64,000 nt of DNA from contig NC_086097.1 in assembly GCF_963921235.1 (NCBI RefSeq), forward strand, positions 53,136,001 through 53,200,000, given 5' to 3'. Positions 20,975 through 64,000 of the stretch are shown in pieces. The first letter of the stretch is position 1; each line of letters opens with the position of its first letter. Below the pieces are notes generated by a model. It saw nothing but the letters and a program-made list of their open reading frames with translations, had not been told where the DNA came from and searched no databases. The DNA comes from Mobula hypostoma (Eukaryota). Made by a program: the position numbers and the translations under genes.

Positions 20975-22480
20975 TGATTCAAAGATTCAAAGTACACTTA
21001 TTAGCAAAAAAATGTATAAATTATACAACCTTGAGATTTGTCTGCTTACAGGCAGCCACAAAGCAAGGAACCCGAAGGAACTCAATTAAAAAAAATGCAC
21101 AGAGAACAAGAAAAAAAACACAAGTCGTGCAACGAAAGAAGCGAGCAACAGCATTCCAAACCAAATTGAGTCCTTGGATCTGAATCCACAGAGCAGCCCA
21201 AAGTATGCCCAAGCCTCGGTCTCAGCTCATCACATTAGTGGGGTAAATTGCCACAAAGCTGGCAGATCCAAAGCATAGCAGCTGGGCGGTCTCACAGCCT
21301 GAGCCTCACAGAGAGGCACGAACATTGTGGGAGAGCGAGTGATATCGGTCTGACTCTCGCCTCTGGTCCGGACACCCTGTTTTTCCAGTCTATCTGGGCC
21401 GGCAATCAAATTGTCCAGCCCAAGAGGCAGATCGCGCCCTGTATTAGGACCCGGGTCCCACCACAGCGATTTGCTCCGGGCCTGGACCTCGCCGCCCAGC
21501 GATTCGCTCCGGGCCTGGACCTCGCCGCCCAGCGATTCGCTCCGGGCCTGGACCTCGCCGCCCAGCAATTCGTTCCGGGCCTATACCAGCCTGCCCGTGA
21601 TTTGCTCTGGGCCTAGACCACGCCGCCCAGTGATTCGCTCGGGGCCTGGACCTCGCCGCCCAGCGATTCGCTCCAGGCCTGGACCTCGCTGCCCAGCGAG
21701 TCGCTCGGGGCCTGGACCTCGCCGCCCAGCGAGTCGCTCTGGGCCTGGACCTTGCCGCCCAGTGATTCTCTCCGGGCCTGGACCTCGCCGCCCAGCGAGT
21801 CGCTCCGGGCCTGGACCTCGCCGCCCAGCAATTCGTTCCGGGCCTATACCAGGCCGCCCAGCGATTTGCTCTGGGCCTAGACCACGCTGCCCAGCGATTC
21901 ATTCAGGGCCTGGACCTCGCCACCCAGCAATTCGTTCTGGGCCTATACCAGGCTGCCCGCGATTTGCTCAGGGTCTAGACCACGCCGCCCAGTGATTCGC
22001 TCCGGGCCTGGACCTCGCCGCCCAGCGAGTCGCTCCGGACCTGGACCTCGCCGCCCAGCGAGTCGCTCCGGGGCTGGACCTCGCCGCCCAGTGATTCGTT
22101 CAGGGCCTGGACCTCGCCGCCCAGCGAGTCGCTCCGGGCCTAGACCACGCCGCCCAGCTTGAAGCCGTTCTCCACCTCTCCAAATTGGCTCGGCGGTTAC
22201 ACCAATCCAGGCTCACACCCGGGTTGCTTAGATGGGCGTTGAAACTCCTCTGTCTCGACTCCTCCTCTCCGAATCACTCACTCCAACTCCATCCGTGTTG
22301 ATATGCAACGCACCAGCACGGCTCATCCCTTGAATTTGCTCCGCCTTCGCTGGCCTCTTCATTAATTACGTGATAGTTTAACACAATTTACTTCAGAAAA
22401 TATGTTATTAATAATGTTTTTGGTCAAATGTCTTGCCTTTCTAACTAGTCACCTTCAGTAGTGCCATCTTAAATCAGAAA
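20975..22480 (-). mobile_element. Non-autonomous REX1-type element carrying a minisatellite
   Basis: 5' end tttctgatttaagatggc; 3' tail (TTTGAATC)n; related segments at ~40485-40970 and ~44350-44947. Confidence 0.65.
21467..22158. repeat. 33-bp GC/CpG-rich minisatellite, ~21 units
   Basis: Unit ctccgggcctggacctcgccgcccagcgattcg; produces 11-aa periodic pseudo-ORFs. Confidence 0.95.
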
Positions 22481-23197: not shown

Positions 23198-23975
23198 AAG
23201 TCAAGTCAAGTCGCTTTTATGTCATTTCAACCATAACTGAAAGTACAGTACACAGTAAAAACGAAACAACATTCCTCCAGGACCATGGCGCTACATGAAA
23301 CAACACAAAACTACACTAGACTATGTGAGACAGCACACAGCTACACTAGACTACGTGAATCAACACAAAACTACACTAGACTACCTGAAACAACACAAAA
23401 CTACACTAGACTACGTGAATCAACACAAAACTACACTAGACTACCTGAAACAACACAAAACTACACTAGACTACGTGAATCAACACAAAACTACACTAGA
23501 CTACCTGAAACAACACAAAACTACACTAGACTACGTGAATCAACACAAAACTACACTAGACTACGTGAATCAACACAAAACTACACTAGACAACCTGAAA
23601 CAACACAAAACTACACTATACTATGTGAATCAACACAAAACTACACTAGACTACCTGAAACAACATGAAACTACACTAGACTACCTGAAACAACACGAAA
23701 CTACACTAGACTACGTGAATCAACACAAAACTAGACTACCTGAAACAACACAAAACTACACTAGACTACGTGAATCAACACAAAACTACACTAGACTACC
23801 TGAAACAACACAAAATTACACTAGACTACGTGAAACAACACAAAACTACATTAAACTTCAGGCCTACACAGGACTACGTAAAGTGCACAAAACAGTGCAA
23901 GACAGTATAATAATTAATAAACAAGACAATAGGTACAGTAAAGGACAAATTACAATATAATAATAAATGACGTAA
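23198..23975 (-). mobile_element. REX1-like 3'UTR fragment (same family as 255-1366)
   Basis: Co-linear with 257-560, including the (TTGAC)n tail. Confidence 0.88.
23290..23850. repeat. 30-bp minisatellite, ~18-19 units
   Basis: Unit ctacactagactac(g/c)tgaa(t/a)caacacaaaa; one 5-bp-deleted unit at ~23731. Confidence 0.95.
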
Positions 23976-27487: not shown

Positions 27488-30400
27488 ATAGAGAAAATAC
27501 TAGAACTATACAGCAGATCAGGCAGTGTATGAGGAAGAGAAACAGTGCTTTATACTGGACATCTTTCAAAAACATCGTGCACAAGAGACGTTAATTCTTT
27601 CTCACTCCACGGATCTGCTGAGAATTTCTTGCCTTTTCTGTTTTCATTCAAATTTTCACCTCCGTTTTAAGACTCCCTTAATATTGCACGGGAATAATAG
27701 CCTAGACTGTTTTTTTCTGCTTGGATCTTTGGGATTTAAACCTATAACTTTCTGACAAGAATGTTTTAAATAAGTCACGAAACACATCAACTATCTGTTC
27801 TCACCACTGAATGAGGTTTGGTTACTTGAGAGGGATTCCAAAGTTTACCTTAATCCACTTAAGGCACTACTTAGGTTGAAATCTATAATTTACTCAAAAA
27901 ATGCTTTTCGTTGTCATGCAACATGTTGAATGAAGCTCAGAGCAGAAGGGATATTTTTGTATGCAATGTCGAGAACTGCAGAAATAGATTAACTACGTTG
28001 TGCAGCGTGAAGCATTTAGTTGGGCTGCAATTCAGCAAAGTAACCCTCAATGATCCCCACCCACCAGTCACCATGGAATCTACTAGGAGAGAAAAAAATA
28101 AACAAAACATTCTGGCCAAGCTAAGGAAAACACTGAAAAATTCTCTTATTATTAAACTAAAAATTGAACAAATATATTCCATTGGCAATTTGTCGACGTG
28201 TCATGTTGACTTTTACCAGCAACGTCTTTAACATTAGGAAATCCTGAATAAAGGAGCCTATTTAATGTTTAATTGAGATGAATTTGCTCTTCTTTTAAGT
28301 ACCACAATGGTGTTTCTCATTTGGCGTCCAGAAAGATTCCCGGAGTCCCAAGGCGCCTGCCTTGTGATCTCAGGTTCGAGTCATGTGTCAGATAATCTTC
28401 GTAGATGTGATCTGTGTATTCAAAGCCCAAATCGACTGAAATAGCTTCCAATAATGTTTTACAAATTGGAGGAATATTCAAAATTCTAAAGAAACACCCA
28501 TAATCCATTAACAACAGAGAAATCAGCCCTATTACCTGATCAGAAAAGTGCTAGACGTGAGCCCTCTCCCATCCGTACCCAAACCATTTCCAACTTTGGA
28601 CAATCAACATTTAGGTCATTTGTAACTTTCAGTAATTATCAAGAAAATTATTGATCAGCTTGTTTACTTTTATGTGTGCACGAAATAAACATGACGAAAA
28701 CTTAACCGATTGACGATCATCATCTGGTGACGGTGAACCGTACAGCGAAATGCGGCTAATGGAGGAGACGCTGTTAGACTTTGAGACGTTATGAGCTGAT
28801 GTATTCAGCTTTTGGCTCAACACGAATGAACAAAACATGCAAGTAAATACGTACTCAAGTGGATCCTTGTGTATATGTAGAGTCTATTTTATTTTGCTGA
28901 CTCCCAACCAGCAGTTTTGGGAAGGTACAGCATGGATCTGTTTCCCTGCTCCTTATGATTCACGCAGAGGGTCCTGTTACAGCACTGAGTTCCAAGTGAG
29001 AAAAAAGGAACTTTTTTTTTAGTTGTTTACAGTTGAACCTATAAAATGCTAGTTATATCTGTTATGACACATGCTCCAGCTATTTCTATCTATGAACCAG
29101 ACTTTTCATTGACCTACAGCACAAGGTCATTCAAAAATCGATCCGTTTTGATAATTAGATTTAATAGAGGTATTGAAAAGTTGTTGCACCTTATGGTTTA
29201 AGAATGAGTAAAGTGTCACAATATACATTCTGCTGAAGACAGACAGTGAAGTGGATTGTAGGGGAGGGCACTGCAGTACAGTACTGTACGTCCTGAGGGC
29301 ATGGCTTTGCCTCAGTGAGTGCTGCTTCCTCACGGTCCCGGTGATCCTGACTGCATTCTCCCGGAGACCATGGGGGGGGGGGGTCTTCTCTAGGTGCCCC
29401 ACTTTCTTTCCACATCTCAAAGTTGGGCTGCCACTGTAAACTACTCTTCAGTGTAGGTTAGGTGGCAAAAAGAATCAAAGGGAAATTAATCGGCACAAGT
29501 AAGAAAGAATAAGTTCCAGGGTACAGAGCAAGAAGAGGAGAAAATTGTATCAATCCCTGTGAGCCAGCATGTACAAAGCCCATAAATTAAAATTACATTT
29601 AATCATGTGCAAATGTGAATAGGATGTATATCTCAATTGCTATGTAATAAAATTTAGGTCCCTCCAGAATGTAAAGAAAGTGTCAAAAACCAAAACAGAA
29701 ATTGTTGGCATTACTCTAACATAATTTTATTTTAAAGCCATTACTAAGCCACTGTTCCTTATAATCTCAAAACTGCAATTTCAAAACAGCAGTGATTCAT
29801 TTTACAGAAGATTTGGAGTGGATGCAACCAGATAAATTACAGGTTTGAATGCAAGAAGCTGGGACTTTTTTTTGTTTTTAGTAGGGCATACAAGAAGTAT
29901 TGTACAGTACAAAAGAGATGACTTGATAGAGGTGTACAGGATGATAAGATCCTACCCAATCGCATGAATGGCAGCGATGCTTCACTACCAGATGAACTCA
30001 ACACCTTCTATGCACGCCTTGAAAGGGAGAACACAACTACAGCTGTGAAGATCCCTGCTGCACCTGATAACCCTGTGATCTCTGTCTCAGAAGCAAATGT
30101 TAGACTGGCTTTAAAGAGAGTGAACCCTTGCAAGGTGGAAGGTCCTGATGGAGTACCTGGTAAGGCTCTGAAAACCTGTGCCAACCAACCAGCGGGAGTA
30201 TTCAAGGACATTTTCAACCTCACTGCTGTGGGCGGAAGTTCCCACTTGCTTCAAAAAGGCAACAATTATACCAGTGCCTAAGAAGAATAACGTGAGCTGC
30301 CTTAATGACTATTGCCCGGTAGTGCTCACATCGACAGTGATGAAATGCTTTGAGAGGTTGGTCATGACTAGCCTGAACTCCTGTCTCAGCAAGAACCTGG

Positions 30401-30964
30401 ACCCACTGCAATTTGCCTATCGCCACAAAAAGTCAATGGCAAATGCAATGCCAGTGGCTCTTCACACGGTTTTAGACCACCTGGACAACATAAACACCTA
30501 CGTCAAGATACTGTTCATCGACTATAGCTCAGCATTTAATATAATCATTCCCACAATCCTGATTGAGAAGTTGCAGAACCTGGGCCTCTGTACCTCCCTC
30601 TGCAACTGGATCCTCGACTTCCCAACTGGAAGACCACAATCTGTGTGGATTGGTGATAACATCTGCTCCTCACTGACGATCAACACTGGTGCACCTCGGG
30701 GGTGTTTGCTTAGCCCACTGCTCTACTCTCTATATACACATGACTGTGTGGCTAGGCATAGCTCAAATACCATCTATAAATTTGCTGACGATACAACCGT
30801 TGTTGGTAGAATCTCATACAGAGACGCGAGGGCGTATAGGAGTGAGAAATGCCAACCTGTGGAGGGGTGTTGCAGCAACAACCTGGCACTAGAAGTCAGT
30901 AAGATGAAAGAGCTGATTGTGGACTTCAGGAAGGGTAAGACAAAAGAACACATACCAATCCTCA

Positions 30965-33092
30965 AACACGAGGAAATCTGCAGATGCTGGAATTTCAAGC
31001 AAAACACATAAAAGTTGCTGGTGAACGCAGCAGGCCAGGTAGCATCTCTAGGAAGAGGTACAGTTGACGTTTTGGGCCGAGGCCCTTCGTCAGGACTAAC
31101 TGAAGGAAGAGCTAGTAAGAGATTTGAAAGTGGGAGGGGGAGGGGGAGATCCAAAATGATAGGAGAAGACAGGAGGGGGATGGAAGGAGCCCAGAGCTGG
31201 ACAGGTGATTGGCAAAAGGGGTATGAGAGGATCATAGGACGGGAGGCCTAGGGAGAAAGAAAGGGGGAGGGGGGGAAGCCCAGAGGATGGGCAAGGAGTA
31301 TAGTGAGAGGGACAGAGGGAGAAAAAGGAGAGAGAGAAAAAGAATATAATAAGTAAATAAATAAGGGATGGGGTACAAGGGGAAGGTGGGGCATTAATGG
31401 AAGTTAGAGGAAGTCAATGTTCATGCCATCAGGTTGGAGGCTACCCAGACGGAATATAAGATGTTGTTCCTCCAACCTGAGTGTGGCTTCATCTTGGCAG
31501 TAGAGGAGGCCGTGGATAGACATATCAGAATGGGAATGGGACGTGGAATTAGAGGGTTAACATATGAGGAACGTTTGTCTGCTCTTGGACTGTATTCCTT
31601 GGAGTTTAGAAGAATGAGGGGAGACCTCATAGAAATATTTCGAATGTTAAAAGGCATGGACAGAGTGGATGTGGCAAAGTTGTTTTCCATGATGGGGGAG
31701 TCCAGTACGAGAGGGCATGACTTAAGGATTGAAGGGCGCCCATTCAGAACAGAAATGCGAAGAAATTTTTTTAGTCAGAGGGTGGTGAATCTATGGAATT
31801 TGTTGCCATGGGCAGCAGTGGAGGCCAAGTCATTGGGTGTATTGAAGGCAGAGATTGATAGGTGTCTGAGTAGCCAGGGCATCAAAGGTTATGGTGAGAA
31901 GGCGGAGGAGTGGGACTAAATGGGAGAATGGATCAGCTCATGATAAAATGGCGGAGCAGACTCGATGGGCCAAATGGCTGACTTCTGTTCCTTTGTCTTA
32001 TGGTCTTATGTCTTATGAAATTAAAATGTGTGGCCACTGGGAGATCCTGCTTTCTCTGGCGGACAGAACATAGTTGTTCAGTGAAACGGTCTCCTAGTCT
32101 GCGTTGGGTCGCACCAATATATATAAGGCCGCATCAGGAGCACCAGATGCAGTGTATCACCCCAGCTGACTCACAGGTGAAGTGTCGCCTCACCTGGAAG
32201 GACTGTCTGGGGCCCTGAATGGTGGTAAGGGAGGAAGTGTAAGGGCATGTGTGGCACTTGTTCCGCTTACAAGGATAAGTGCTGGGAGGGAGATCAGTGG
32301 GGAGGGATGGGGGGGGGAATGAATGGACAAGGGAGTCACGAAGGGAGCAATCCCTGCGGGGGGGGGGAGAGGGAAAGATGTGCTTAGTGGCGGGATCCAG
32401 TTGGAGGTGGCAGAAGTTACGGAGAATTATATGTTGGACCCGGAGGCTGGTGGGGTGGTAGGTGAGGACAAGGGGAACCCTATTCCTAGTGGGGTGGCGG
32501 GAGGATGGGGTGAGAGCAGATGTGCATGAAATGGGAGAGATGCATTTGAGAGCAGAGTTGATGGTGGAGGATGGGAAGCCCCTTTCTTTAAAAAAGGAGG
32601 ACATCTCCTTCGTCCTGGAATGAAAAGCCTCATCCTGAGAGCAGATGCGGCGGAGACAGAGGAATTGCAAGAAGGGGATGGCATTTTTGCAAGACACAGG
32701 ATGAGAAGAGGAATAGCCAAGGTAGCTGTGAGAGTCCGTGGGCTTATAGTAGACATTTGTAAATAAGCTGTCTCCAGAGGTAGAGACAGAAAGATCTAGA
32801 AAGGGGAGGGAGGTGTTGGAAATGGACCAGGTAAACTTGAGGGCAGGGTGAAAGTTGGAGGCAAAGTTAGTGAAGTCAACGAGCTCAGCACGCGTGCAGG
32901 AAACAGTGCCAATGCAGTCGTTGATGTAGCGAAGGAAAAGTGGGGGACAGATACCAGAATAAGTTTGGAACATGGATTGTTCCACAAAGCCAACAAAAAG
33001 GCAGGCATAGCTGGGACCCATATGGGTGCCCATAGCTACACCTTCAGTTTGGAGGAAGTGGAGGAGCCAAAGGAGAAATTATTAAGAGTAAG
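30965..33092 (-). mobile_element. Penelope-like element (RT + GIY-YIG), 5'-truncated, interrupted by a CR1
   Basis: MGTHMGPSYACLF...FLRYINDC...LPFLDL...YYKPTDSHSYL; FTCESAGVIHCIWC; 8-bp TSD aatcctca (30957-30964, 33093-33100). The hammerhead at 31061-31098 has GAAA>AAAA. Confidence 0.92.
31552..32015 (+). mobile_element. Young CR1-like LINE 3' fragment
   Basis: GLTYEERLSALGLYSLEFRRMRGDLIE; (TCTTATGG) tail; flanks tggaatta/tgaaatta. Confidence 0.9.
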
Positions 33093-34649
33093 AATCCTCA
33101 TAGAGGGATCATCAGAAGTGGAGAGAGTGAGCAGCTTCAAATTCCTGGGTGTCAAGATCTCTGAGGATCTAACCTGGTCCCAACATATTGTTGTAGTTAT
33201 AAAGAAGGCAAGCAGCGGCTATACTTTATTAGGAGATTGAAGAGATTTGGCATGTCAACAAATACACTCAAAACCTTCTATAGTTGTACCATGGAGAGCA
33301 TTCTGACAGGCTGCATCACTGTCTGGTATGGAGGAGCTACTGCACAGGACCAAAAGAAGCTGCAGAAGGTTGTAAATTTAGTCAGCTCCATCTTGGGTAC
33401 TAGCCTATCAAGTACCCAGGACATCTTCAGGGAGCGGTGTCTCAGAAAGGCAGCGTCCATTATTAAGGACGTCCAGCACCCAGGGCATGCCCTTTTCTCA
33501 CTGTTACCATCAGGTAGGAGGTACAGGAGCCTGAAGGCACACACTCAGCGATTCAGGAACAGCTTCTGCCCCTCTGCCATCCAATTCCTAAATGGCCATT
33601 GAACCTTTGGACACTACCTCACTTTTTAAAAAATATATAGTATTTCTGATTTTTGCACGATTTAAAATCTATTCAATATACATATACTGTATAAGATTTA
33701 TTATTATTATTTTATTCTTTTTCTTCTATGTTATGTATTGCATTGAACTGCTGCTGCTAAGTTAACAAATTTCACGTTACATGTGGGTGATAATAAACCT
33801 GATTCTGATTCTGAAGATAGATTGACTGGGCAGCCAGAGACTTGCACAGAATGAAAATAGCTAATATGAGGGGCCATAATTTTAAGGTGATTGGATGAAA
33901 GTATAGGGGGAAATGTCAGAGGCAAGTTTTTTTTTATATACAGAGCGTGGTGGGTGCATGGAATTTACTGCTGGGGTGGTGGTAGAGGCTGATACATTAA
34001 GACTGTTAGGTAGGCACATAGATAATTGAAAAATTTTGGGCTATGTGGAAGGGAAGGTTTAGATTGATCCTACAATAGATTAAAAGGTTTTCGCAACATC
34101 ATGGGCTGTAGTGCCTGTACTGTGCTGTAATGTTCTATGTAAAGGGAGTTAGCTTTAGCCATTTTGGTAATCTAGGGACCCAGTATGGGTTTATTAACAG
34201 CAAATGGTTTGGGACTAAGCTGACTGAATTTTATGAAGCAACAGAGATCAATTAAGTGGATGTAATAGGAGGTTGTTTATTTGGATTTGGATTTATTTGA
34301 ATCAAAGGGAAATGAGTGGGCATGTGTAAGAGAGAGTAAGTTTTAAAGTTCCACATAATAGACAAGTTGCAATAAATGATCAATAGTAATATAAGAAAGT
34401 GGCCCACAAGTGCAAGTTACATTGCTTTTTTGATACATGTTAACGCTTCTGCAGAAGGGAAGATCTCTGGTGTGTTAATAGGGAGAATGGAAATGGGGTC
34501 CTGATGGCTGAACCAGCGGGGAGTGGGGTGGGGTTGGTCAGTGATCCAGATGCTGAATCATTTGAATTTCCAAACAACAGAATAGCAGGTTATCATTGTT
34601 TTCCTGTGCAGAATGGTCAAGGATTGAAGGAATTCAGCTGCAAGATCAG

Positions 34650-36249: not shown

Positions 36250-36845
36250 GTTGGGCACACTCCCGCTACGGCGTGACACCGTCGGGCACACTCCTGTCAC
36301 GGTGTGACACCGTCGGGCACACTCCCACAATGGCGCGACACCGTTGGGCATATCCCCGCCATGGCATGACACTGTTGGGCACGCTCCCACCATGCGTGAC
36401 ACCGTTGGGCACGTCCCCGCCATGGCATGACACCGTCGGGCACGTCCCCGCCACGGCATGACACCGTCGGGCACGTCCCCGCCACGCCACGGTGTGACAC
36501 CATTGGACACGCTCCCACCATGGCGTGACACGGTCGGGCACGTCCCCGCCACGGCATGACATTGTCGGGCATGCTCCCGCCACGCCACGGTGTGACACCG
36601 TCGGACACGACCCCACCACGGCATGGCACCATCGGGCACGCCCCTGCCTCAGCGTGACGCTCCCGCCACGGCGTGACACCGTTGGGCACGCCCCCGCCAC
36701 GGCGTGACACCCTTGGGCACACTCCCACCATGGCGTGACACCCTTGGCACACTCCCACCATGGCGTGACACCCTTGGGCACACTCCCACCGGGACGTGAC
36801 ACACTCCCGCAATGCCATGACACCATCGGGCACACTCCCACCATA
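36250..36845. repeat. ~31-bp GC/CpG-rich minisatellite, ~19 diverged units
   Basis: Unit gccacggcgtgacaccgtcgggcacactccc with variants. Confidence 0.92.
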
Positions 36846-36947: not shown

Positions 36948-38653
36948 CACACATCAAAGTTGCTGGTGAACGCAGCAGGCCAGGCAGCATCTCTAGGAAG
37001 AGGTACAGTCGACGTTTCAAACCGAGACCCTTCGTCAGGACTAACTGAAGGAAGAGTTAGTAAGAGATTTGGAAGTTGGAGGGGGAGGGGGAGATCCAAA
37101 ATGATAGGGGAAGACAGGAGGGGGAGGGATGGAGCCAAGAGCTGGACAGGTGATTGGCAAAAGGGGATATGAGAGGATCATGGGACAGGAGGCCCAGGGA
37201 GAAAGACAATGGGGGTGGGGGAACCCAGAGGATGGGCAAGGGGTATAGTAAGAGGGAGAAAAAGGAGAGTGAGAGAAAGAATGTGTGTATAAAAATAAGT
37301 AATAGATGGGGTACGAGGGGGAGGTGGGGCATTAGCGGAAGTTAGAGAAGTCGATGTTCATGCCATCAGGTTGGAGGCTACCCAGACGGAATATAAGGTG
37401 TTGTTTCTCCAACCTGAGTGTGGTTTCATCTTTACAGTAGAGGAGGCCATGGATAGACATGTCAGAATGGGAATGGGATGTGGAATTAAAATGTGTGGTT
37501 ACTGGGAGATCCTGCTTTCTCTGGCGGACAGAGCATAGGTGTTCAGCAAAGCGGTCTCCCAGTCTGCGTCGGGTCTTGCCAATATATAGGCCACATCGGG
37601 AGCACCGGACGCAGTATATCACCCCAGCCGACTCACAGGTGAAGTGTTGCCTCACCTGGAAGGACTGTTTGGGGCCCTGAATGGTGGTAAGGGAGGAAGT
37701 GTAAGGGCATGTGTAGCACTTGTTCCGCATACAAGGATAAGTGCCAGGAGGTAGATCAGTGCGGAGGGATGGGGGGGACGAATCGACAAGGGAGTCGCGC
37801 AGGGAACGATCCCTGCGGAAAGCAGTGAGAGTGGGGGAGGGAAAGATGTGCTTAGTGGTGGGATCCCGTTGGAGGGGCGGAAGTTAAGGAGAATAATATG
37901 TTGGACCCGGAGGCTGGTGGGGTGGTAGGCGAGGACCAGGGGAACCCTATTCCTAGTGGCGTGGCGGGAGGATGGAGTGAGAGCAGATGTACGTGAAATG
38001 GGGGAGATGCGTTTGAGAGCAGAGTTGATAGTGGAGGAAGGGAAGCCCCTTTCTTTAAAAAAGGAAGACATCTCCCACGTCCTGGAATGAAAAGCCTCAT
38101 CCTGAGAGCAGATGTGGCGGAGACGGAGGAATTGCGAGAAGGGGATGGCATTTTTGCAAGAGACAGGGTGAGAAGAGGAATAGTCCAGATAGCTGTGAGA
38201 GTCAGTAGGCTTATAGTAGACATCAGTGGATAAGCTGCCTCCAGAGACAGAGACAGAAAGATCTAGAAAGGGGAGGGAGGTGTCAGAAATGGACCAGGTA
38301 AACTTGAGGGCAGGGTGAAAGTTGGAGGCAAAGTTAATAAAGTCAACAAGCTCAGCATGCGTGCAGGAAGCAGCGCCAATGCAGTCATCAATATAGCGAA
38401 GGAAAAGTGGGGGACAGATACCAGAATAGGCACGGAACATAGATTGTTCCACAAAGCCAACAAAAAGGCAGGAATAGCTAGGACCCATACGGATGCCCAT
38501 AGCTACACCTTTAGTTTGGAGGAAGTGGGAGGAGCCAAAGGAGAAATTATTAAGAGTAAGGACTAATTCCGCTTTAAAGAGATGATCTAAACTTCTTCGG
38601 TGTAGGCATTACCGGAAGAGGCTTCGCAGTAGTGAATTTTAAAAACTGAAGAG
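36948..38653 (-). mobile_element. Penelope-like element (RT + GIY-YIG endonuclease), frameshifted
   Basis: ORFs 37652-38500 (FLRYIDDC) and 37332-37730 (VIYCVRCSRCGLYIGKTRRRLGDRFAEH); 11-bp TSD aaagagtgtaa (36937-36947, 38654-38664). Confidence 0.93.
37006..37043 (-). ncRNA. Minimal hammerhead ribozyme motif (core intact, weak stem II)
   Basis: UAGUC-CUGACGA-A-GGGUCUCGGUUU-GAAAC-GUC^GACUG. Confidence 0.65.
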
Positions 38654-46846: not shown

Positions 46847-47020
46847 TCACATCCAGCCGCTGGTAAGCTTAAAGAACATATCTTCATCCAAGCTTTCATT
46901 CTGATCCTTAGCCCGCGTCGATAGGAAGATGTAACCACCAATGAACTCATGAACTACCTTGCAGTCGATATCTCCACAGATAAAAGAAAGCCGAACTTCA
47001 TCGGCAAACTCAACAGTCAC
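46847..47020 (-). CDS. FERMT2: Kindlin-2 last coding exon
   Basis: tgtttag|[60 protein letters not shown]. The ADEVRLSF...[11 protein letters not shown]...LTSGW pattern fits kindlin-2 rather than kindlin-1 or -3. Confidence 0.97.
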
Positions 47021-51761: not shown

Positions 51762-52401
51762 CTTACTCATTTCCATGGATATTGGCTGGCCTGCTGAGTT
51801 GTTCCAGTATTTTGTGTGTGTCACTCAAGATTTTCAACATCTGCAGATTTTCTCATGTTTATGATTCTATTCTTATCCGCTCACAAATCCAGTTACTCAG
51901 ACATGGCCTTCTCTTTACAAGTCCTTGGTTAATCAGGAAACTCTCTAAACGTTGCTTAGTGCCGTCACTCAATTCCTTCTAATAACTTGGCCACTTGTTC
52001 TTTGTTTTAAATGGTGCATTATTAGCTTGTGGAGAGAGTATATATAGAAAAAAAGATGATCAGCATGTTCACTATTCCCTCCTTAGATTTTCTCAATAGC
52101 TTGAGTAAGTTTGTTGATTTTCCTGGTTTGACAAATGTTAAATCCTCCATCACTGCACTAACCTTGCCCTTAATTACAGCATTTGCATTGTTCCTCTCTT
52201 GTGAAGGAAAAAAAATCAATATAAAAATATGTTATACACTAAAATGTTTCAACTTGAATTTTGTTATCTGCACGTACTATACTAGTTCTGATTTACTCAT
52301 ATGATATCTCACATTACAGACCATGAACAAAAGTTAACATTCAAATATAAACAAACATAGCATTCAAAATAATGATTCAGGACATTTCTAATTAATCATA
52401 C

Positions 52402-52543
52402 CATTTTGATTTCCCAATTTACATTCCACTGTTTCATGTTGCTGAACCTCCATGTCTTGATTGCATCTCCTGTGCTTGAATCCATCCTGATCAACCTATT
52501 ATAGGCTATGCCAATCAGATCATCTTTCTTGCTTCCTTGAAAC
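52402..52543 (-). CDS. FERMT2: Kindlin-2 penultimate coding exon (142 nt; FERM F3 with integrin-binding QW motif)
   Basis: tttag|G + [47 protein letters not shown]|gtatga. Phase-compatible with both neighbouring exons. Confidence 0.97.
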
Positions 52544-52949
52544 CTAAATTGCAACATATTGCATAACATTTTAAAGTAAAGGGCAGCTTGATGGCAGCGA
52601 ACATTATAAAAAGTATCTGAACAATAGGAAAACAATACTCTTGGAAACCACCAACAAGCAGCCACTTAACAGATATTAGGTTTATTATCAAAAATTAATG
52701 ACCCAAAAAATAATATATTTATCTGCATTAAATAAAGCAGCAAAACACTGGGACTAGCACGAAGAACTGAACTGCAGAGGATTGAATTACATTGGTACTC
52801 TCGAGCACCAAAGCCTCAAACAATTATTAACTACCTGACACATTCAAGAAAACAGCAAATTTACAGTTTAAGTTACCGTAAGTATTTATAGAATAAATAC
52901 ATTAGAATTCATTATTCCAAACTAAAAGTTAACACAAATAGCCTTATAA

Positions 52950-53329
52950 GACCATAAGACAAAGGAGCAGAAGTAGGCCATTCAGCCTATCTAGTCTGCT
53001 CCGCCATTTTATCATGAGCTGATCCATTCTCCCATTTAGTCCCACTCCCCCGCCTTCTCACCATAACCTTTGATGCCCTGGCTACTCAGATACCTATCAA
53101 TCTCTGCCTTAAATACACCCAATGACTTGGCCTCCACTGCTGCCCGTGGCAACAAATTCCATAGATTCACCACCCTCTGACTAAAAAAATTTCTTTGCAT
53201 TTCTGTTCTGAATGGGCGCCCTTCAATCCTTAAGTCATGCCCTCTCGTACTAGACTCCCCCATCATGGGAAACAACCTTGCCACATCCACTCTGTCCATG
53301 CCTTTTAACATTCGAAATGTTTCTATGAA
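52950..53329 (-). mobile_element. Young CR1-like 3' fragment
   Basis: Near-identical to the 3' part of 31552-32015; TSD cttataa (52943-52949, 53330-53336). Confidence 0.9.
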
Positions 53330-54631
53330 CTTATAAACTGGAAGACTGTATTACTTTAAATTTTTTGACAGAAACGAAAATTTCTCTTCAGAAAGCTGAT
53401 CAACAGCTGGGACAAACAGCTATCATGATCATGATTTTGTAGTATTTTCTGTTAAATTTCTAGACAATTCTAAGTATAGACTTTTTTGACATTTAGTGTT
53501 ATTTCAAAGACGTGTTCAGTAGTTGGCTATGAATGATGATGCTCTTGTCATCATGTCTATATAGGAATGCGCGTCAATAATAACTTCCAGGATGGAATGC
53601 TACAATATCTCAAAAGAAAATTCCCCATGAATGATTACTGCAAAATAATGAGTTACTGTAATTGCTGCATTAAAACTGCACTGTGATTTTCCAGGGAGTT
53701 TCCAGAGGATGCATCCCTCAAAAATGTATTTTTTCCTTCTGACCCCTTGCTGACCTTCCTACTGAAACTGCACAAATCATCCCCTGCTTAAGTACTTTCA
53801 AAAAAGAAGACACGATATTCGGATCAAAGTCAAAGTAAATTTATTATCAAAGTATGTACACACTACCATTTACAACCCTGAGATTCACTTTCTGGCAGGC
53901 ATTGCAAGGTTGTGTGTCTCATCAAACAAAGAAGGAAAATTACATGCATTCATATTTAAAGCAAAGATCAATGTCAGTTTATTGATGGCCAAAGCTGATG
54001 AAGCAGAATTATACATGCGTCAACAAATATGTACATACTTCCAAGTATTGGAAATGCAGTTCAAACTAGTCACTAGGAGAAAGATCACTCATCTTAAGGT
54101 TAGATTTCTATTCTTCCTTTTCCTCGACAGGTTAAAAAGTAGTCGACTTGCTAGTTATTAGTTAATTACTGCAATGTAGACTTGCTAGTTATTAGTTAAT
54201 TACTGTAATGCAGACCCGGTGTCTAGCCAATACAGATTAAAAATCTACTGGCAAACATCAGCTTTTGCTCTTTCCACAAATTTTGCCAATCCTACTGAAC
54301 ATTTTCAGTATTTTCGCCTTTTATTTAAGACTTACAGTATTTGCATTTGCTTGCTTTTATCTAAGCATAAGAACATCTTTGTTACACACCACCTGTTTAT
54401 CACCACTCTATGAGATGCGGTATTGTAGAAAATAGCACTGTTTATTTGCTACAACTTCCGCCAATTAGTCAAAGGGTCAAGGGACGCACTCAAGATGGGA
54501 GACAACAATCAAATGACTTAGGATGGAACTAGTGAAAACTTAAGTTTCATTGAGTGTCAAGTGATTGTTGTGACGTGTCTAGTATGGTAGTGTAGTTGGT
54601 AAGTGCTTGCTACTCCTACTTTCAGTTTCCA

Positions 54632-55185
54632 TCACTGGCTAGAAGTTTCAGGAAAAGGAGAGCTGAATGTGCAAGTCTTTCCCTGCCAGCACATGGCCTC
54701 TCCAACAGCAAGCCTCATGTAGTCCCTCCTCAGTGGTGTCACACGGAAACTGATACCTTTCAGAACTAAAGAAGACAGGCAGGGGGTCAGGGCCATGCAC
54801 ACGGAGCACGCTGGCGTGGGGATACGCCCTGCTGCTTTTGAACCAGATCCCCAGATATGGTTAAATAACTGCCCTTGTGGGCAGCCCCGGGAGATACAAA
54901 GGCTGTGGGAGTAAACCCAGACAAAAAATCCGGAGGGGAGCCCCAAGGCAGCTGGATGTCACTGAACATCCTTCCGGCAGCTCCTGCAGCCAAGCCGGTG
55001 CCAAATGTATTGCTTCACTTTCCTTGGACTGCACCGGTGAGGCAGAGCGGGGAATCTTGATGACTGGGCATCCCAAGATCTCCAAACCTTCTGCCGAAGC
55101 TTGTGCCCTAGAGGGGTCACTCCAGTGCGACTGTTCAACTATATTTCCATTGTCCTTCGAGACAGACCGATGCCATCAGTAGCCA
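54632..55185 (-). mobile_element. Probable RTE-clade 5'UTR-derived element
   Basis: GC-rich block (...tttggcaccggcttggctgcaggagctgccggaagg...gggtttactccc) resembling RTE LINE 5'UTRs from recall; not verified. Confidence 0.5.
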
Positions 55186-55653
55186 CGAGTCAGGATGCTG
55201 TAAACGGGAGAACTGCTACTGTGTGGTGTCAATAAGCAACAAGAAAAAAAAAGTAAGGAAATATAGAAAATGTTCAATGCTAATTGTATGTCCTAATTTC
55301 CTTTGACAGACTGAAAGCTGAAATTATACTGAAAGCTCGACTTTAATATATTTTTTGAGTAAACAAATAAATATCAACTTGGTCATGCTTCTGTGGCACA
55401 TCTTAGAGAAAGGCCATGATTATTTTTGGGTTGTCTAGTCAATTTTTGATCTTAAAACACATGGAAACAAGCACAGACCCTTGTTCCATCTTTGAAAACC
55501 AGTTAGATGGTAAGTTTATGCAGCTGCTGTGGAATAAATAAAATCACAAGTTGGTACAGACTGTACCTTTCTAAAGGTTAAAAGGATGGGCAACAAGCAT
55601 ACAACATCTCTATCTATATAGTTGTTAATAATTTGTGGAAGTTATCTTGTTAC

Positions 55654-55778
55654 CTTGCAATGAAATGAGTGATGCCAAACTCAGGTAATGATTGCCAGGC
55701 CTGAATAAACCTCATCTTTGCCTCAATGAGACTCATCTGAGCTACATTTTGATGGGCCTCAAGGATCCTGGCAGAGAT
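55654..55778 (-). CDS. FERMT2: Kindlin-2 third-last constitutive coding exon (125 nt; F2/F3 junction)
   Basis: ttttcag|[41 protein letters not shown](R)|gtaa. Kindlin sequence, ends in phase 2. Confidence 0.97.
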
Positions 55779-55793
55779 CTGAAAAGGAATAAA

Positions 55794-55817
55794 ATATATA
55801 TATATATATATATATAT
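55794..55817. repeat. (AT)12 microsatellite
   Basis: Read directly from the sequence. Confidence 0.95.
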
Positions 55818-56322
55818 TAAAAAAACATTTTTCATAGTTATACTAAGGAAGAGTTATCAGAAGAGCACTGAACAGTAACAAAAACTAAATAAGAGAATGG
55901 CAAAAACCTGAGTAAAGGTTAAAAACGGAGACATATTCAGGACTGCAAAGTTAGTTTTCTTTTGTTAAAAAACATTTAGCTCAGGAAAACCTTCCACTGT
56001 TATGTGATCAAATAGGTCAACAAACAGGCAGTTGTACATTCCTGTAAACAGTCTTCCATTTATGCTGATGGCCTTTAACCTATCGAGTTATTTCTTAGGC
56101 CTTCAATGTTAAAAATGGGAATAAATTTTGGTCTGAATTCTCCAGTGTCAAATTTAATCTGCATTATTCTCATTACTGATTGTTCTTTGTTTCCAAGTTT
56201 GGATCGAGTGGAGGTTTTCACTTCAGCATTAACACTTAACAATTCTGACACACAAGGCAGCCCACACATACAAATACACACAAAACATTCTTCCCATCAC
56301 AGAGACCAAACTGACCACTTAC

Positions 56323-56343
56323 CAAGTCCCTTACATAGCCTGG
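56323..56343 (-). CDS. FERMT2: Kindlin-2 alternative 21-nt micro-exon (PGYVRDL)
   Basis: Minus strand reads ...ttcctttgccctcttcatgctgccctcttcag|CCA GGC TAT GTA AGG GAC TTG|gtaagt. Long pyrimidine tract, consensus donor, phase 0/0. Matches the PGYIRDL insert of the longer human kindlin-2 isoform, which sits immediately before ITARILE. Confidence 0.9.
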
Positions 56344-57284
56344 CTGAAGAGGGCAGCATGAAGAGGGCAAAGGAAGTTGAAAGAAAATGCAGTAAGAATA
56401 AGGTTAAAAGCATCACACAAACAGTTTGTCACACCCATCCATCTGCCTCCCACCACTCAAAAAGATCCCCTAAAGCAACTAAATGAATTACTCATACAAG
56501 TGAAGTCATTAACAATGCATGTGATACATTGGACACGTTATCTGATCATCAAAATCTCATTATTATTAACTGGCATGGGGCTGACATCTGTTTTTGAGGA
56601 ACTCACAACTTGCTAGAACTTTGCTAAAGGGTTTCTATAGCATTTGTGTTTCCCAGATGGTAAGAAAGTGAGGAAAATAATGCTGTCTAAAATGTGTCCG
56701 ACCCTATGGAAACAGTATCTGATGCCATTCTGTGCTGAGATTATTACAATTATGTTTGGTCCTCCTCAATACAAGTTATGTTCTACAAACGAGTTTGTAC
56801 ATTATAGAAACCAACGTTGCAATTGTAAATTCCTGTTAATGAATATCACACGTCAAAATGAGCCCGATGAGTTAGCTCAAAAAATAGAGGGAGCCAAAAC
56901 TGTAAAAGATATGACAGACATTCAATAATAATAATGTTACAATTTATGTCACAAGTGATAACATGGGGTATTTAAGGAGAGGTATAAAATGTGAATGAAG
57001 GTCAGAAATGAACTAAATCAGAAAGCAGGTCAACAGTTATCTGGGGTGGGGGTGTGCACATTATATCTTTTGGAAGAGAAGGCTGAGACTTTACTCGATA
57101 TATCTAGCTTTTCCTTCAATAAGAAAATTGGATTTGCACTAGAATAGCCAATAATGTTCCCTTTTCAAGAGGAAGAGATCAAGAAAATCAGCAACAAATA
57201 CTAGTTATGGGAAATATTTACAAAAGGTAATAATCATTAGAAATGTGTACAACAGTTTGAAAACATTGGCACAGCTTTGTTAAA

Positions 57285-57480
57285 CAGTTGAGGCCAGTTC
57301 ATTGGCTATATTTAAGAGGGAGTTAGATATGGCCCTTGTGGCTACGGGGGTCAGTGGGTATGGAGGGAAGGCTGGGGCGGGGTTCTGAGTTGGATGATCA
57401 GCCATGATCATAATAAATGGCGGTGCAGGCTCGAAGGGCCGAATGGCCTACTCCTGCACCTATTTTCTATGTTTCTATGT
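57285..57480 (+). mobile_element. CR1-like 3' end
   Basis: ggctcgaagggccgaatggcctactcctgcacctattttctatgtttctatg. Confidence 0.85.
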
Positions 57481-58789
57481 TAAGAGTACTATGGGTTCTG
57501 GATACCTTAATCAACAAGATTTAAATTAGAAAGCACTTAACATAGGGTTTTCACGATTAAAATCAAAAATAGAAAATTTAACATCCAGCAGATTTTTAAG
57601 ATATTGGGGCTATTTCCACAGGTTTTCCTCTAAAGCAAGATAAAAAGATTTAACAAGTGGAGTGCTTAATTTAGGAAGTGTTTTTCCATTATGAACTTGG
57701 ACAGACCATTTGGTGTGCCAGTTCTGAAGGTCGCATGTTCAACAGTCAGTTAAAGTGAGAATAAAAGCTCCATTGTGCTGAAGTCACAAAGCTTTGGAAA
57801 GATTTCCTCCAGTGAGAGGAAGAGCCAGAGCCAGTATTTCAGAGAAAAATTGGATATGTACTTGAAGCAGAAGATGACAGCAAGATCATCACTTGCCTCA
57901 ACACATATTTTGCTGAAACCCTCCTCCATGTCTTGTTACCAGATGACAATCAGCTCATTCAGATATTAGCCTCCTGAAGAGTCTCACACTGTGCACTTCC
58001 TGCAATAGTGAAGCTATCCCAAAACCCAGCTGTCAATCTGACACTGCACTGATCTCTGGTGACTCATTGCTTGCATGCTCACTGACTCACATAGACCTCC
58101 GATCCAATAATGCCTTAATTTTAAAATATTTAACATGATGAACAAATCCTTCAATGACCCCACCCTTCTTTCAACTTTATATCCCATTCTGTTCTCCTTC
58201 TCTTTAGATCTCTGCCTTACTCCCTGTCCACAAAATTCACTGGGCTACAACTGACAAGCATGCTTTCAGCTGGAAGTTCACCCGTAAAACTTTTCCTGAT
58301 AGCTGTTTTTAACTTGGATGCTGCTTCTTTGACCTGCTTCTGATTAGCTTTTATAATTTCCCTCTATGTGATTTGGTACTTGATTTTGTTTGATAATCCT
58401 CCCATATATCTCAATCGAATATTTCTGCACTGGCAAAGCTATTTTATAAATGCAAGTTCCTGAGTGGGACAAGCACTCTATTAAATAGTGGGCACGGACA
58501 CCTCGGGGCAATGCCCCCTCTAATTACCAATTTAGTACACGGAAAGTCATTTTAAAATTCAGAAAATGCAATATTTTCTGTTCAACGTGTAGGCAACCTT
58601 ATTTCCAATCTTTTAATACAAAAGTTAAAAAATACCTTGCACATAATATTTAACAATACTTTTATTATTTCACAATTAGGCCAAAAAACTCCAAGACCAA
58701 GTACAGGAACTGAAGGTCATTTTTCACAACAGGAGGAACTCTGCAGGGACAAGGAGAATGTTGTAAACTGGAGCAAATGTGAAAATATG

Positions 58790-60490
58790 AAGCATACAGC
58801 CATGGTATCTTCAAACATGGAAACGCCCTCTGGTCCAACCTGTCCATGCCAATTGTGTCACCCAGTGATTTATTCCCATCTGCCCGCGTCTGGCACGTAA
58901 TCCTCTAAACCACTTCCATCAGTGTGCGTATCTAGATGGCCTTTAGATATGGTTAATGTGTCCACTGCTAACTTAATTTCTGGCAGTACATATGCACCAC
59001 AATTTGTGAGAAGAAGCTGCCCCATTAGTCCCCTTTAAATCTCTCGCCTCTGATCTTAAACCTATGCCTCTTGTTTTTTGTACCTCCTCTCTGGGAGGAA
59101 AGGCTATGTGCTTCCACCCTGTCTACATCCGTCACGATCTACAATTCCTCTGTCAGGTCACCCCCTCAATCTCCCACCATCCAGGGAATTAAGTCCTAGT
59201 CTACACAACTTCATCTTGTACCTCAGGCCCTCAAGTTAAGGCAACATCCTGATAAATCATATCTGCACTTTCACTACTTTAATAACATCTTTCCTTTAAC
59301 AGGGTGATCAAATCTGTACATAATACTCCAAGTGAGGCTTCACCAATGTCTGGTATAGCTGCATCATAACTTGTTAACTTTTAAACTCAGCGCCTTGACT
59401 GATGAATCCAATATGCCTAATGCCTTCTTCACCATTTGATATCTACTTCAGATGCCACTTTCAGCAAACTATGCAAGTGCACTCAAGGTCCCTCTGTTCC
59501 ATTACATTCCCCAGTGTACCGTTCACTGTACAAGTCCCTACCTGGGTTAGACCTCCCAAGATACCCTACAAATGGATTGAAAGCCATTCGCCAATCATCA
59601 GCCCATTTACCAAGCTGATTATAATCAGTAATTTTACATAACCTTCTACACTGTCTGCAATACTACCTAATTGACTATCGTCTACAAACTCATTAATTTT
59701 GCCTGGACATTCACATCTAAATCATGAATCTAAATTCACGAACAAGGGTCTCAGCACTGACCTTCGAGGTGCACCACCAGACACAGGCCTCTAGAGTGAG
59801 GAACAACCCTCAAACAACACCCAGCTACCCCCCTCCCCCACCCTGCTTTCTACCACAGAGCTAATTACTAATCCAAATAATGATCTCCCCCTAGATTCCA
59901 TGCAATCTGACCTTCAAGACTAGACTCTCATGAGGGAACTTGTCAATGGTGTTCCTAAAAGTCCATATAGACAACATCCATTGTCCTACTATTATATACT
60001 CTCTTGGTTATGAATTCCAAGAGATTTGTCAGACACAAGTTCCCATGCAAAACTGTGCTGACTATCCTGAATAAGACCCTGTCTCTCCAAATATCCCATC
60101 CAGCCCTAGTTCCATCACATCCTCTTTCTTAACATCGACATGTTCTAGCATATCAGCATGTTCTACGCTAATTTCACATTCGTCAATTTCCCACTCACTG
60201 ATGAATACTGAGGCAATGTATTCATCAAGGGCCTCCCCCATCTCCTCCAACTCCAGGCACACGCTTCCTCTTTTATATCTGATTGGTCCTACTCTCACTG
60301 TTCTCATCCTCCTGTTCTTCATGTACTGTATGTGTTTTTTGCCTTGGGGCTTTTCTTATTCTTACTTGCAAGGCCTTCTCACCCCCCCTCCCCCACCCCA
60401 CTAGCTCCGCTAAGTCAATTCTTCAGCTCCTTCCTGGTTACCATATAACACTCCAGAATTCAGTCTGATCCTTGCTTCTTCAACCTTAAG
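58790..60490 (-). mobile_element. Old degenerate CR1-like LINE
   Basis: RVGPIRYKRGSVCLELEEMGEALDEYIASVF and other degenerate CR1 motifs. Confidence 0.7.
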
Positions 60491-62814
60491 CATGCTTCAT
60501 TCTTCATCTTGACCACCTATAATATCCCCATCCCTGGAGCCAATCCAAGTCCTTAGTTCATCTGCCTCTTGCGTCGAAATAAATAGGTTTAAATCAATGG
60601 TTTTTGCTCTCCCTTTATGTGCCTCTGCCGATAGTGACAACTAAACTTGCTCTCATTTGCTACCATTTAACCCCCTGATTCCTAATCATCTACTCAGCTT
60701 AAATAGCAAGTAAAACAGACCTTACCGTAAAACAGTCAGTAAAATTGCATAAAATTCCACGGAAGCCTTAAGAAGCAATGCTATGATTTGACTCTAGCAC
60801 AAGGACAGCATTTAATTGGCTCCGTTTCTTGTCAGCAATAAGTGTTCCAGTAATTCTCTAAATGGGCCTTCTAACCTTTCTTAACAAATCAGTTCACACT
60901 GTCATAAAGAATATCACTAAACAACAACTTGTCCCAAGAGATAGAGAGTTGAGGAAGAAATCATCAGGAAAGACTGGTTATTAGAAATTGCTTTGCATGC
61001 TAGCCAAATGGCTGTTATTTAAAGGCCCATTGCTAATACCTTCAGGGTCTCCATGTTTATATTGACTATCTGCTTGGAGACTTCTGGACCTGTTTAGAGG
61101 CATAACATACTGTACATCTTCACAAGACTAATTCATAATTCCAGAGTGCTTTCAAGGCCCCTAAAGGGCCACAAAATCCTGACCTGGAACAAGCCTAACC
61201 ACACAGTTGAAGCCTTTTTCAGAGGGGGGTTCAACCTCACCCACCCTGCTGCCAGGGTGTCCAAAATGTCCAGTCCTAGCCTTGCAGCGATCACCAGAGT
61301 GACTGACTGAATCGCGACCTGGGCTAGCTGTCTGTCTGCACAATGCAACCAGGTTCCATTACCAGTCACACGCTTCTAGCTTTTAGCTCCACCTATCCCC
61401 ATTAAACTACTCTACCCACTCCTAAACTTTACTCATTCTCTTTTGAATTACCCACCCAGCTGCTGCAATACATAATCTTCCCAACTTATTGAGTGAGCTT
61501 GCAGAGGAAAAGACTCTGCCAACACAAATCTATGTAAAGTCTGCCCTATGGTAGACAATGCAATGCCAGCTATGTCACCACCACACCACCACTGCATTTG
61601 TGTAGCTCTGTAAACATAGGAACATAATTAGACTAGTTTCTTGAAATTGTTCTGCCAACCAATGAGATCTTTCCCCCTCAAATTTCATGCAGTTTAATGT
61701 GCACACATATCAAAAATCGTAGATTTTAAATGAATGTGTCATCTGTAGAAGAGGTCTAAACTTCTACCACACTTTGTACAATGAAGTTCTTTCTAACATT
61801 AACTCATGGAAGGTCTAGCTTTAAGAGTTAGACAACAGGTGTTTATATGACATAAGTGATTACAGTTGCAGACTATCTCGCCTTGGACTTAAGCATTTCA
61901 GTACAAGGTCTGAAGGGATATCACATATACTGCTCTGCAGGTGTAGTGACTCAAGCTATTGAATAACAAAGCTAGTTTTAAATTGCATCACAGTAGGTTT
62001 AGTGTTAAACGGATGTTCCCTTTCCTACTTTTTTCTAAGCAGAAAGACTTAGCCAACAGGAAACATTGTTATATGGACAGTAGAAACAGCCTTCAAAAAT
62101 GAATCATTCTTCCCAGTTCAAAAATGCCAGCACAGTGAAACACTTCTTCAGAGCCAAACCAGAAAATCCCTCCATGCAACTTGGAACACTTCACTAGTTG
62201 GGTTTTACAGGTAAACCAATCTAAGCGGAATTTCGAAATGAGCAACAGCATATTGAAGCGAAATAACTTTACCATTAAGTGGGGAAAAATCAATTTAAAA
62301 ATCTCAATGAATAAGAATTCTATGCTAATGTGTATAATGACAAGAGACTGCTCTCACCAGCCCCTTCAGTCTTTGCATCTCTCAATTACTGACAGCATGA
62401 AACTAACTGTGCAGTCTAGCAATGCTGTATTCAGCCTTTAAAAAGGTAATTATGTAATGCTCGACATTGTTTGTACCACTTTGAAAAATTACATTCTGAA
62501 CTACCCAGTTTATAATGTCTCCAAACTTAGATGCAATCTGCATACTTGAATATATTATGAAAGATGGTGGCCCCACAAGAAATCAATGTGGGGCAGTACC
62601 GGCCACACCCTGCTGGAGTTCCCAGTATCCACATTCATTATAATCTACATCACGACCAATCACTAACAAATTATACATCTACTTCAATCAAGCTTATCTG
62701 ATAATCTAATGAACAGTTTCAATAATCAATTCCATTGGCAGGAATCATGAAATGCAGAAGGATTAAGCAAAACAGAATCCAATATTGTTCAATTTATAAA
62801 GATTTTTTTTAAAA

Positions 62815-62946
62815 AACGAGAGAAATTCTGCAGGTGCTGGAAATCTGAGCAACACACACAAAATGCTGGAGGAACTCAGCAGGCTAGGCAGCATCAAGGA
62901 AAAGAGTACAGCTGATGTTTCGGGTCAAAACCCTTCAGCAGGACAA
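62815..62946 (-). mobile_element. Short Penelope-like 3' terminus with degenerate hammerhead
   Basis: GUC-CUGCUGA-AGGGUUUUGACCC-GAAAC-AUC. Confidence 0.75.
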
Positions 62947-62974
62947 GATTTCTTTTAAATTGTTCATTATGAAA

Positions 62975-64000
62975 GTTGGCCTAAGGTATCTAGTTTTACA
63001 GTGGAGTAAAGGCAATTAAGAGAGGCATGAGAGAGGAGCTGGCCAAAGTTGAGTGAAAGGGAACACTAGCAGATATGATGGCAGAACAGCAAAGGCTGGG
63101 GTTTCTGGGGGTAATGCAGAAAGTGCGGAATAGATACACCCCAGAGAAGAATTGTAAAAGAAGCACAATACAACCATGGCTGAAAAGGGAAGTCAAAGAC
63201 AGCATAGACACAAAAGAGAGGGCATAAAATACTGCAAAGATTAGTGGGAAGTTAGCAGATTGGGAAACTTTTAAAAACCAACAGAAGGTAACTAAAAAAG
63301 CCATAAGGAGAGATGAAATCTGAAGGTAAGCTAGCCAATAATATAAGAGGATGCAAAACCTTTTTTTCAGATATATAAAGAGTAAAAGAGAGGTAAATGT
63401 GGATATCGGAGCACAGGAAAATGACACCAGAGAGGTAAGGGGGACAAAGAAATGGTGGATGAATTTAATAAGTATATTGTGTCAGCCTTCACTATGGAGG
63501 ACACTAGTAGTATGTCAGAAACCAAGAGTGTCAGGGCAGGAGCAAATATGGTTGCTATTACTAAGCAGAAGGTGCTTGGAAAAAGGTCTGATGGTGGATA
63601 AGTCACCTAGACCAGATGGACTACACTCCAAGTCTCTGAAAGAGGTAGCTGCAGAGATTGTGGAAGCATTAGAAATGATCTTTCTAGAATCACCAGATTC
63701 TGGAATGGTTCCGGAGGACTGGAAAATTGCAACTATCACTCCACTCTAAGAAGGGAGCAAGGCAGAAGAAAGGAAATTATAGGTCACTGACCTCAGTGGT
63801 TGGGAAAATGTTGGGAGTTGATTGTTAACGATGATGCTTCTGGGTATTTGGGAGCACATGATAAAATAGGGCAAACACAACATGATTTCTTTAAGGGGAA
63901 ATTTTGCCTGACAAATCTGTTGAAAGCTTTTGAGGAAATAACAGGTATGTTAAACAAAGGAGAGTCAGTGGATTTTGCTTACACAGATTTTCCGAAGGCA
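62975..64000 (+). mobile_element. CR1-like LINE internal region (runs off the window)
   Basis: FFRYIKSKR, DKSPRPDGLH, SGMVPEDWKIATITPL. Confidence 0.85.

Follow-up and report, generated by a model that had tools for sequence, protein, structure and literature searches.

An optionally spliced 21-nucleotide exon of kindlin-2 (FERMT2) in the ray Mobula hypostoma: likely age, plausible regulation and protein context

Locus and gene identity

The window analysed here, a stretch of 64,000 nucleotides, carries on its minus strand exons of the kindlin-2 gene (FERMT2) of the ray Mobula hypostoma. The gene was identified by the matching protein record P0027 (M. hypostoma kindlin-2 isoform X4), the exons of which map by tblastn from residue 177 onward to the window and its flank. 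P0027 contains Pfam families PF18124, PF00373 and PF00169 (Kindlin N-terminal, FERM central and PH, respectively, with the PH domain splitting the FERM central one) above cut-off, and the best PDB matches of the gene are kindlin-2 rather than kindlin-1 or kindlin-3. Two kindlin paralogues (79% and 64%) are located elsewhere in the ray genome; their introns at the same junction contain no similar 21-nt exon, with a best score of 5 among 14 candidates in one (contig C22) and of -10 among four candidates in the other (contig C82).

In the direction of transcription, a 222-nt exon ending in KYKNKQ lies beyond the window (G000:C1:53205322-53205543) and is followed by an upstream intron of 12,978 nt, the 3′ part of which occupies window positions 56344-64000. 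The microexon described below (56323-56343) is separated by a short downstream intron of 544 nt (55779-56322, from sequence and exon mapping) from a constitutive 125-nt exon (55654-55778), which encodes the end of the F2 subdomain and in which 39 of 39 aligned residues are identical to kindlin-2 structures. The next exon (52399-52543, ends approximate, placed by tblastn) belongs to the F3 subdomain, with a spliced joint 52541-55652 in four of four runs, and the coding part of the last exon was placed at 46850-47020, also by tblastn. All of these features are on the minus strand.

The window also contains minisatellites at 21464-22158, 23291-23857 and 36253-36802, with periods of 33, 30 and 31 nt, respectively, the repetition of which gives long open frames, and LINE reverse-transcriptase-like fragments on both strands (30172-33599, 37335-38608 and 13321-15824), recognized by eye from the translations. 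In stingray and carp models P0023 and P0076, the end of the PH domain is joined to the 125-nt exon and the 222-nt exon is skipped.

The microexon and its splice sites

The microexon (56343-56323 on the minus strand) is a 21-nt cassette of phase 0/0 that encodes PGYVRDL, with a cag acceptor before it and a consensus gtaagt donor behind it (56322-56317). Its ends are AG and GT, its length is a multiple of three and does not exceed 27 nt and it contains no stop, as is characteristic of microexons. It resides in a phase 0 intron of ∼13.5 kb between the exons ending in KYKNKQ and starting with ISARILEAH. An earlier note on this DNA had described a frame-preserving exon with this peptide and donor, and a pyrimidine tract with tttgccc and catgctgccc before the acceptor; the sequence bears out the exon, and both motifs are present at 56344-56400. 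The description of the exon as hidden was overstated, as the insert is already found in annotated cartilaginous-fish and many bony-vertebrate proteins. A second donor-like site, gtaagg, lies inside the microexon and would define a potential 9-nt exon (56323-56334, minus strand) encoding PGY from the same acceptor; this form occurs in no contig or protein examined.

To assess chance occurrence, every open AG-21nt-GT candidate in 113 kb, read on both strands (629 in all), was scored for similarity to the inserts of teleosts and hagfish. The microexon scored 38 and the next best candidate 12, and it ranks first among the 47 such candidates in its own 13.5-kb intron. The 301-nt region around it is present in only one copy in the ray genome.

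Splicing in public runs

Six of 22 listed public runs were compared with the locus; none is recorded as RNA or carries a tissue label, and they were taken as RNA by guess, their contigs being without introns. The depth of a contig is a count of covered bases only, from which neither expression nor PSI is derived. In runs X5 and X12 a single contig consists of the 125-nt exon, then 56323-56346 and then the end of the upstream exon (as a reverse-complement loose end), so that the microexon is joined to both neighbours. In X2 and X6, a main contig covering 24 bases of the microexon bin would give depths of 52.26 and 16.95; the observed values are 52.3 and 16.9. Inclusion is therefore the assembled path in four of the six runs, from three organisms (two explicit and two by depth). 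In X1 and X17 the contig ends at 55781, on a CAG that is common to the upstream exon, and the microexon is uncovered; judged from these contig ends, both runs fit skipping. The skipped form is also represented by P0027, which has no insert. X1 and X2 come from the same organism and the same study and their contigs differ at the microexon; thus, the included and skipped forms both likely occur in one species.

Another contig of X2 (1410 nt) contains sequence of the upstream intron and stops at the donor of the microexon, six letters being left unplaced; this is compatible with the short downstream intron being spliced out before the upstream one. These observations confirm that the microexon is a real, optionally spliced exon of FERMT2 that keeps the frame either way.

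Conservation and age

Among 298 retrieved proteins, 263 span the junction: 175 have no insert, 62 have a seven-residue insert and 26 have other lengths. An arginine stands at position 5 of the insert in all 62 proteins, and seven-residue inserts occur in the elephant-shark protein model and in teleosts, amphibians, reptiles, birds and mammals. Ray contigs and annotated proteins thus support the earlier proposal of an alternative exon common to bony and cartilaginous vertebrates. The human kindlin-2 isoform with PGYIRDL invoked with it is matched by a catalogued human 21-nt exon, and the peptide itself was seen in a record of the primate Aotus (P0250) and in no human record.

Hagfishes extend this range. 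Kindlin records of Eptatretus are found with and without the insert AGFVRDM, and Myxine also has AGFVRDM. Over four exons, identity to the hagfish protein is 75-76% for ray FERMT2 and 63-64% for the two ray paralogues. Since two hagfish species carry a matching insert, the microexon is likely to be older than jawed vertebrates and to predate the cyclostome-gnathostome split, as judged from protein annotation; its probable origin is the ancestral vertebrate kindlin-2 gene. The age originally proposed, before the split between bony and cartilaginous fishes, is upheld as a minimum and was an underestimate. No lamprey or invertebrate record was found among 120 listed of 203 matches. None of 53 junction-spanning representatives (best 150, 50% identity) has the seven-residue insert, which is weak evidence of absence as each representative shows one isoform only.

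Some automatic gene models contain junk residues at the junction. A FERMT1-like model of the cavefish Sinocyclocheilus (P0300) has, at this same junction, a ten-residue insert that starts with V and contains TGYLRS. If real, it would make the exon older than the kindlin-1/2 duplication; it resembles other donor read-through models and was set aside as a probable artefact.

Catalogued orthologues

The exon itself is already known, with catalogue entries for human, rat, mouse and zebrafish. A human 21-nt FERMT2 exon is among reported microexons (hg19 chr14:53,327,731; PMC8627023). At hg38 chr14:52861014-52861034 its inclusion is higher in prenatal heart (dPSI 0.21), while a tandem 24-nt FERMT2 exon has higher inclusion postnatally (PMC12925949); the postnatal drop of the 21-nt exon may be due in part to junction reads diverted by this adjacent exon. 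Mammalian records P0143-P0148, P0271, P0275 and P0281 carry a lysine-rich eight-residue insert, corresponding to the 24-nt exon, only together with the seven-residue insert.

The rat exon (chr15:19811925-19811946, with flanking exons of 222 and 125 nt) rises from a PSI of ∼0.005 to 0.09-0.27 on RBPMS overexpression (dPSI 0.161) and is not listed among the aorta versus cultured-cell changes (PMC6613909). The mouse exon (chr14_-_45462714_45462735) is paired with zebrafish chr17_+_50780929_50780950, in a row that we took as Fermt2 from its sequence and layout. It is assigned to cluster E3, ‘excluded’, outside the neuronal clusters. A difference is marked for it at some stage of brain, with the direction unstated, and none is marked in heart or skeletal muscle; the zebrafish copy comes from samples of brain (PMC7821500).

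Cis elements around the microexon

The 3′ splice-site region of the microexon occupies 56344-56444 (minus strand). It is 82% pyrimidine over -60 to -4, the nearest upstream AG is 101 nt away, and both its AG-free zone and its pyrimidine share are the highest of 16 kindlin acceptors. Branch-point-like yUnAy sequences are present at -64, -59 and -53 and UGC is present at -12, -15, -26 and -48. Four UGC in the last 60 nt compare with 0.64 expected from mononucleotide shuffles (p=0.0005); the count does not exceed that of dinucleotide shuffles (p=1.0), a test that is degenerate in so pyrimidine-rich a tract. UGC also occurs within -25 to -4 of five of the 15 constitutive kindlin acceptors. YGCY occurs three times in the last 30 nt, versus 0-2 times in the 15 control acceptors.

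On the other side of the exon, a tract rich in UG that the earlier note had missed (56232-56301, minus strand; +22 to +91 relative to the donor) contains 13 UGU and three GUGUG and is a candidate CELF or RBM24/38 enhancer on the basis of motif counts. Its UGU count is reached by 0.04% of 100-nt segments of 113 kb and shows no excess over dinucleotide shuffles. YGCY upstream of an exon is a setting of repression by MBNL and UG-rich sequence downstream is one of activation by CELF or RBM24/38, and such a pair is a known feature of heart and muscle exons that switch between fetal and adult forms. RBPMS recognizes tandem CAC. No tandem CAC, RBFOX (UGCAUG) or QKI (ACUAAY) motif was found within 300 nt on either side of the ray exon; with regard to the properties of RBPMS-activated exons, the rat orthologue responds to the protein and the ray copy lacks tandem CAC over this distance. 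A hairpin mechanism was ruled out, as the RNA around the exon is less stable than shuffled sequences (z=+2.1).

Regulation

By analogy with its orthologues, regulation of the ray microexon is plausible, and on balance we expect it to be switched by developmental or muscle-type factors and not by neural SRRM3/4. Control of the MBNL/CELF/RBPMS type fits better than SRRM3/4, and these proteins are candidate regulators. With its strong donor and short downstream intron, the microexon would join its 3′ neighbour first; MBNL would act as a repressor through the three YGCY upstream, and CELF- or RBM24-type proteins as activators through the UG tract downstream. Inclusion would then be higher in fetal, muscle or mesenchymal cells. 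[quoted passage not shown] The MBNL/CELF model fits these data and those from human heart, but the latter are confounded by the tandem exon. Fermt2 is elsewhere treated as MBNL-regulated (PMC13522761, PMC8775431). The MBNL motif proposed in the earlier note is accordingly present, as three YGCY, and finds indirect support in the Mbnl3 data, but the exon followed in myotonic-dystrophy mice is a different one, exon 4a (see below).

The same note had read the acceptor as an SRRM3/4 signature. If the exon were a neural SRRM3/4-dependent microexon, its inclusion would mark neurons or endocrine cells, and its cis layout is indeed as described for this class, in which UGC lies between the branch point and the AG within a long AG-free pyrimidine tract followed by a strong donor (bioRxiv 10.1101/2024.09.17.613571): it is 21 nt long with a consensus donor, a 101-nt AG-free zone, 82% pyrimidines and UGC at -12, -15 and -26. 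The downstream-first contig of X2 matches the order of most SRRM4 microexons, and the exon occurs in brain samples of zebrafish and is marked as differential at some stage of mouse brain. However, that splicing order is also common for tissue-regulated exons generally (PMC10250204), and UGC is shared by a third, five of 15, of the constitutive acceptors. The signature holds for the cis layout and is opposed by the trans data: FERMT2 is absent from a list of 314 SRRM4 targets in HEK293 cells, defined as exons rising by at least 25 PSI points on SRRM4 expression and including the controls APBB1 and ITSN1 (PMC7935315), the mouse exon falls in cluster E3, which is not neuronal, and inclusion is seen in human heart and in RBPMS-expressing rat smooth-muscle cells. 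We therefore consider SRRM3/4 dependence unlikely. One supplement of a Snap23 microexon paper contains no Fermt2.

Broad partial inclusion, with the level set by core splice-site strength and both isoforms coexisting in most tissues without a dedicated switch, would agree with the strong donor and pyrimidine tract, with inclusion in four of six runs from three organisms and with a mouse exon that lacks a strong tissue pattern. It accounts poorly for a rat control PSI near 0.005 that increases with RBPMS, for the developmental change in human heart and for the difference between X1 and X2 in one organism, and we regard it as distinctly improbable. That an intron matches the peptide by chance, or that annotation carried the peptide over, the exon being unused, might be suggested by the insert-free P0027 and by the junk that some automatic models hold at the junction; with the microexon present at its exact ends in spliced contigs, a score of 38 versus 12 for the next of 629 candidates, and size, position and peptide conserved, this explanation is scarcely credible.

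Protein context of the seven residues

The insert falls inside the Pfam FERM_M family, in the second half of F2, past the PH domain and directly after the basic sequence KKYKNKQ. Alignments to the kindlin-2 crystal constructs 5xpz and 5xq1, as well as to kindlin-3 7c3m, contain a seven-residue gap at this junction. In the talin-1 chain of 6r9t (2547 residues, with a possible offset from a tag), residue 278 is aligned to the Arg of RILEAH. The basic membrane patch of talin-1 F2 is presumably K272/K274/R277, going by residue labels. Basic residues of talin F2 bind PIP2 (PMC7768682). F2 also mediates dimerization of truncated kindlin-2, whereas a dimer of the full-length protein is disputed (PMC7373317).

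The seven residues would add about two turns to the helix that follows. The AlphaFold2 placement of the insert at the start of the ISARILEAH helix was discarded as evidence owing to low pLDDT: two runs on the insert-bearing elephant-shark protein gave mean pLDDT values of 34.2 and 40.9, with ∼35 for the insert. We tentatively suggest that the insert could tune a membrane or partner contact with no domain removed. Searches by peptide and by function, with subscription journals, VastDB and bioRxiv supplements outside their scope, found no functional study of the seven-residue insert.

Taken by itself, the ray copy is an ordinary catalogued vertebrate microexon and adds little; the additions made here are the hagfish-based age and the position beside the basic stretch of F2. 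Both isoforms have been retained throughout. Should their lipid or partner binding turn out to differ, integrin activation during the development of heart and muscle would be under a splicing control that is easily testable. A bolder and rather doubtful proposal is that a spliced switch older than the split of hagfishes and jawed vertebrates operates in the basic, membrane-facing F2 of kindlin-2, kindlin-1 and kindlin-3 being without it, and that the mammalian eight-residue exon turned it into a three-step dial of lipid binding and integrin activity in developing muscle and heart. Were this true, structural and cell studies of the short form of kindlin-2 would miss the dial.

Comparison with known systems

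Fermt2 exon 4a (33 nt), an MBNL-dependent event tracked in myotonic-dystrophy mice (PMC13522761), is likewise a short frame-preserving cassette of the same gene that is RBPMS-responsive in rat and present in ray and hagfish. It is a distinct exon in another part of the protein, ∼49 kb upstream of the microexon and outside the window. In the ray it lies near G000:C1:53241632 on the minus strand (33 nt, GSDVLYIGPSK, with a tag acceptor and a gtaagc donor). An insert matching it occurs in the Myxine protein P0174, so exon 4a also looks pan-vertebrate.

The neural SRRM3/4 microexons resemble the ray microexon in length, donor, distant tract and branch point, UGC and downstream-first intermediate, but differ in that human FERMT2 is missing from the SRRM4 target list, the mouse exon belongs to a non-neuronal cluster and the exon is used in heart and smooth muscle. 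With respect to the F2 patch of talin-1, the kindlin-2 junction is within about three residues, behind a lysine-rich stretch; talin-1 F2 binds lipid, and no published lipid binding was found for the kindlin-2 stretch.

The closest relatives of the ray microexon are its mammalian and zebrafish orthologues, with which it shares the peptide pattern PG[YFC][IV]R[DE]L. Mammals have the extra tandem 24-nt exon, whereas none was found in the ray intron: the best of 38 candidates scored 14 and had poor splice sites. The upstream intron is also longer in the ray (13 kb versus about 2 kb in rat), and the downstream intron measures 544 nt versus 481 nt in rat and 474 nt in mouse by published coordinates. 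Length, frame and junction are the same in these orthologues and the ray, the flanking exons of 222 and 125 nt equal those of the rat and the mouse exon is identical to the ray microexon at 18 of 21 nucleotides.
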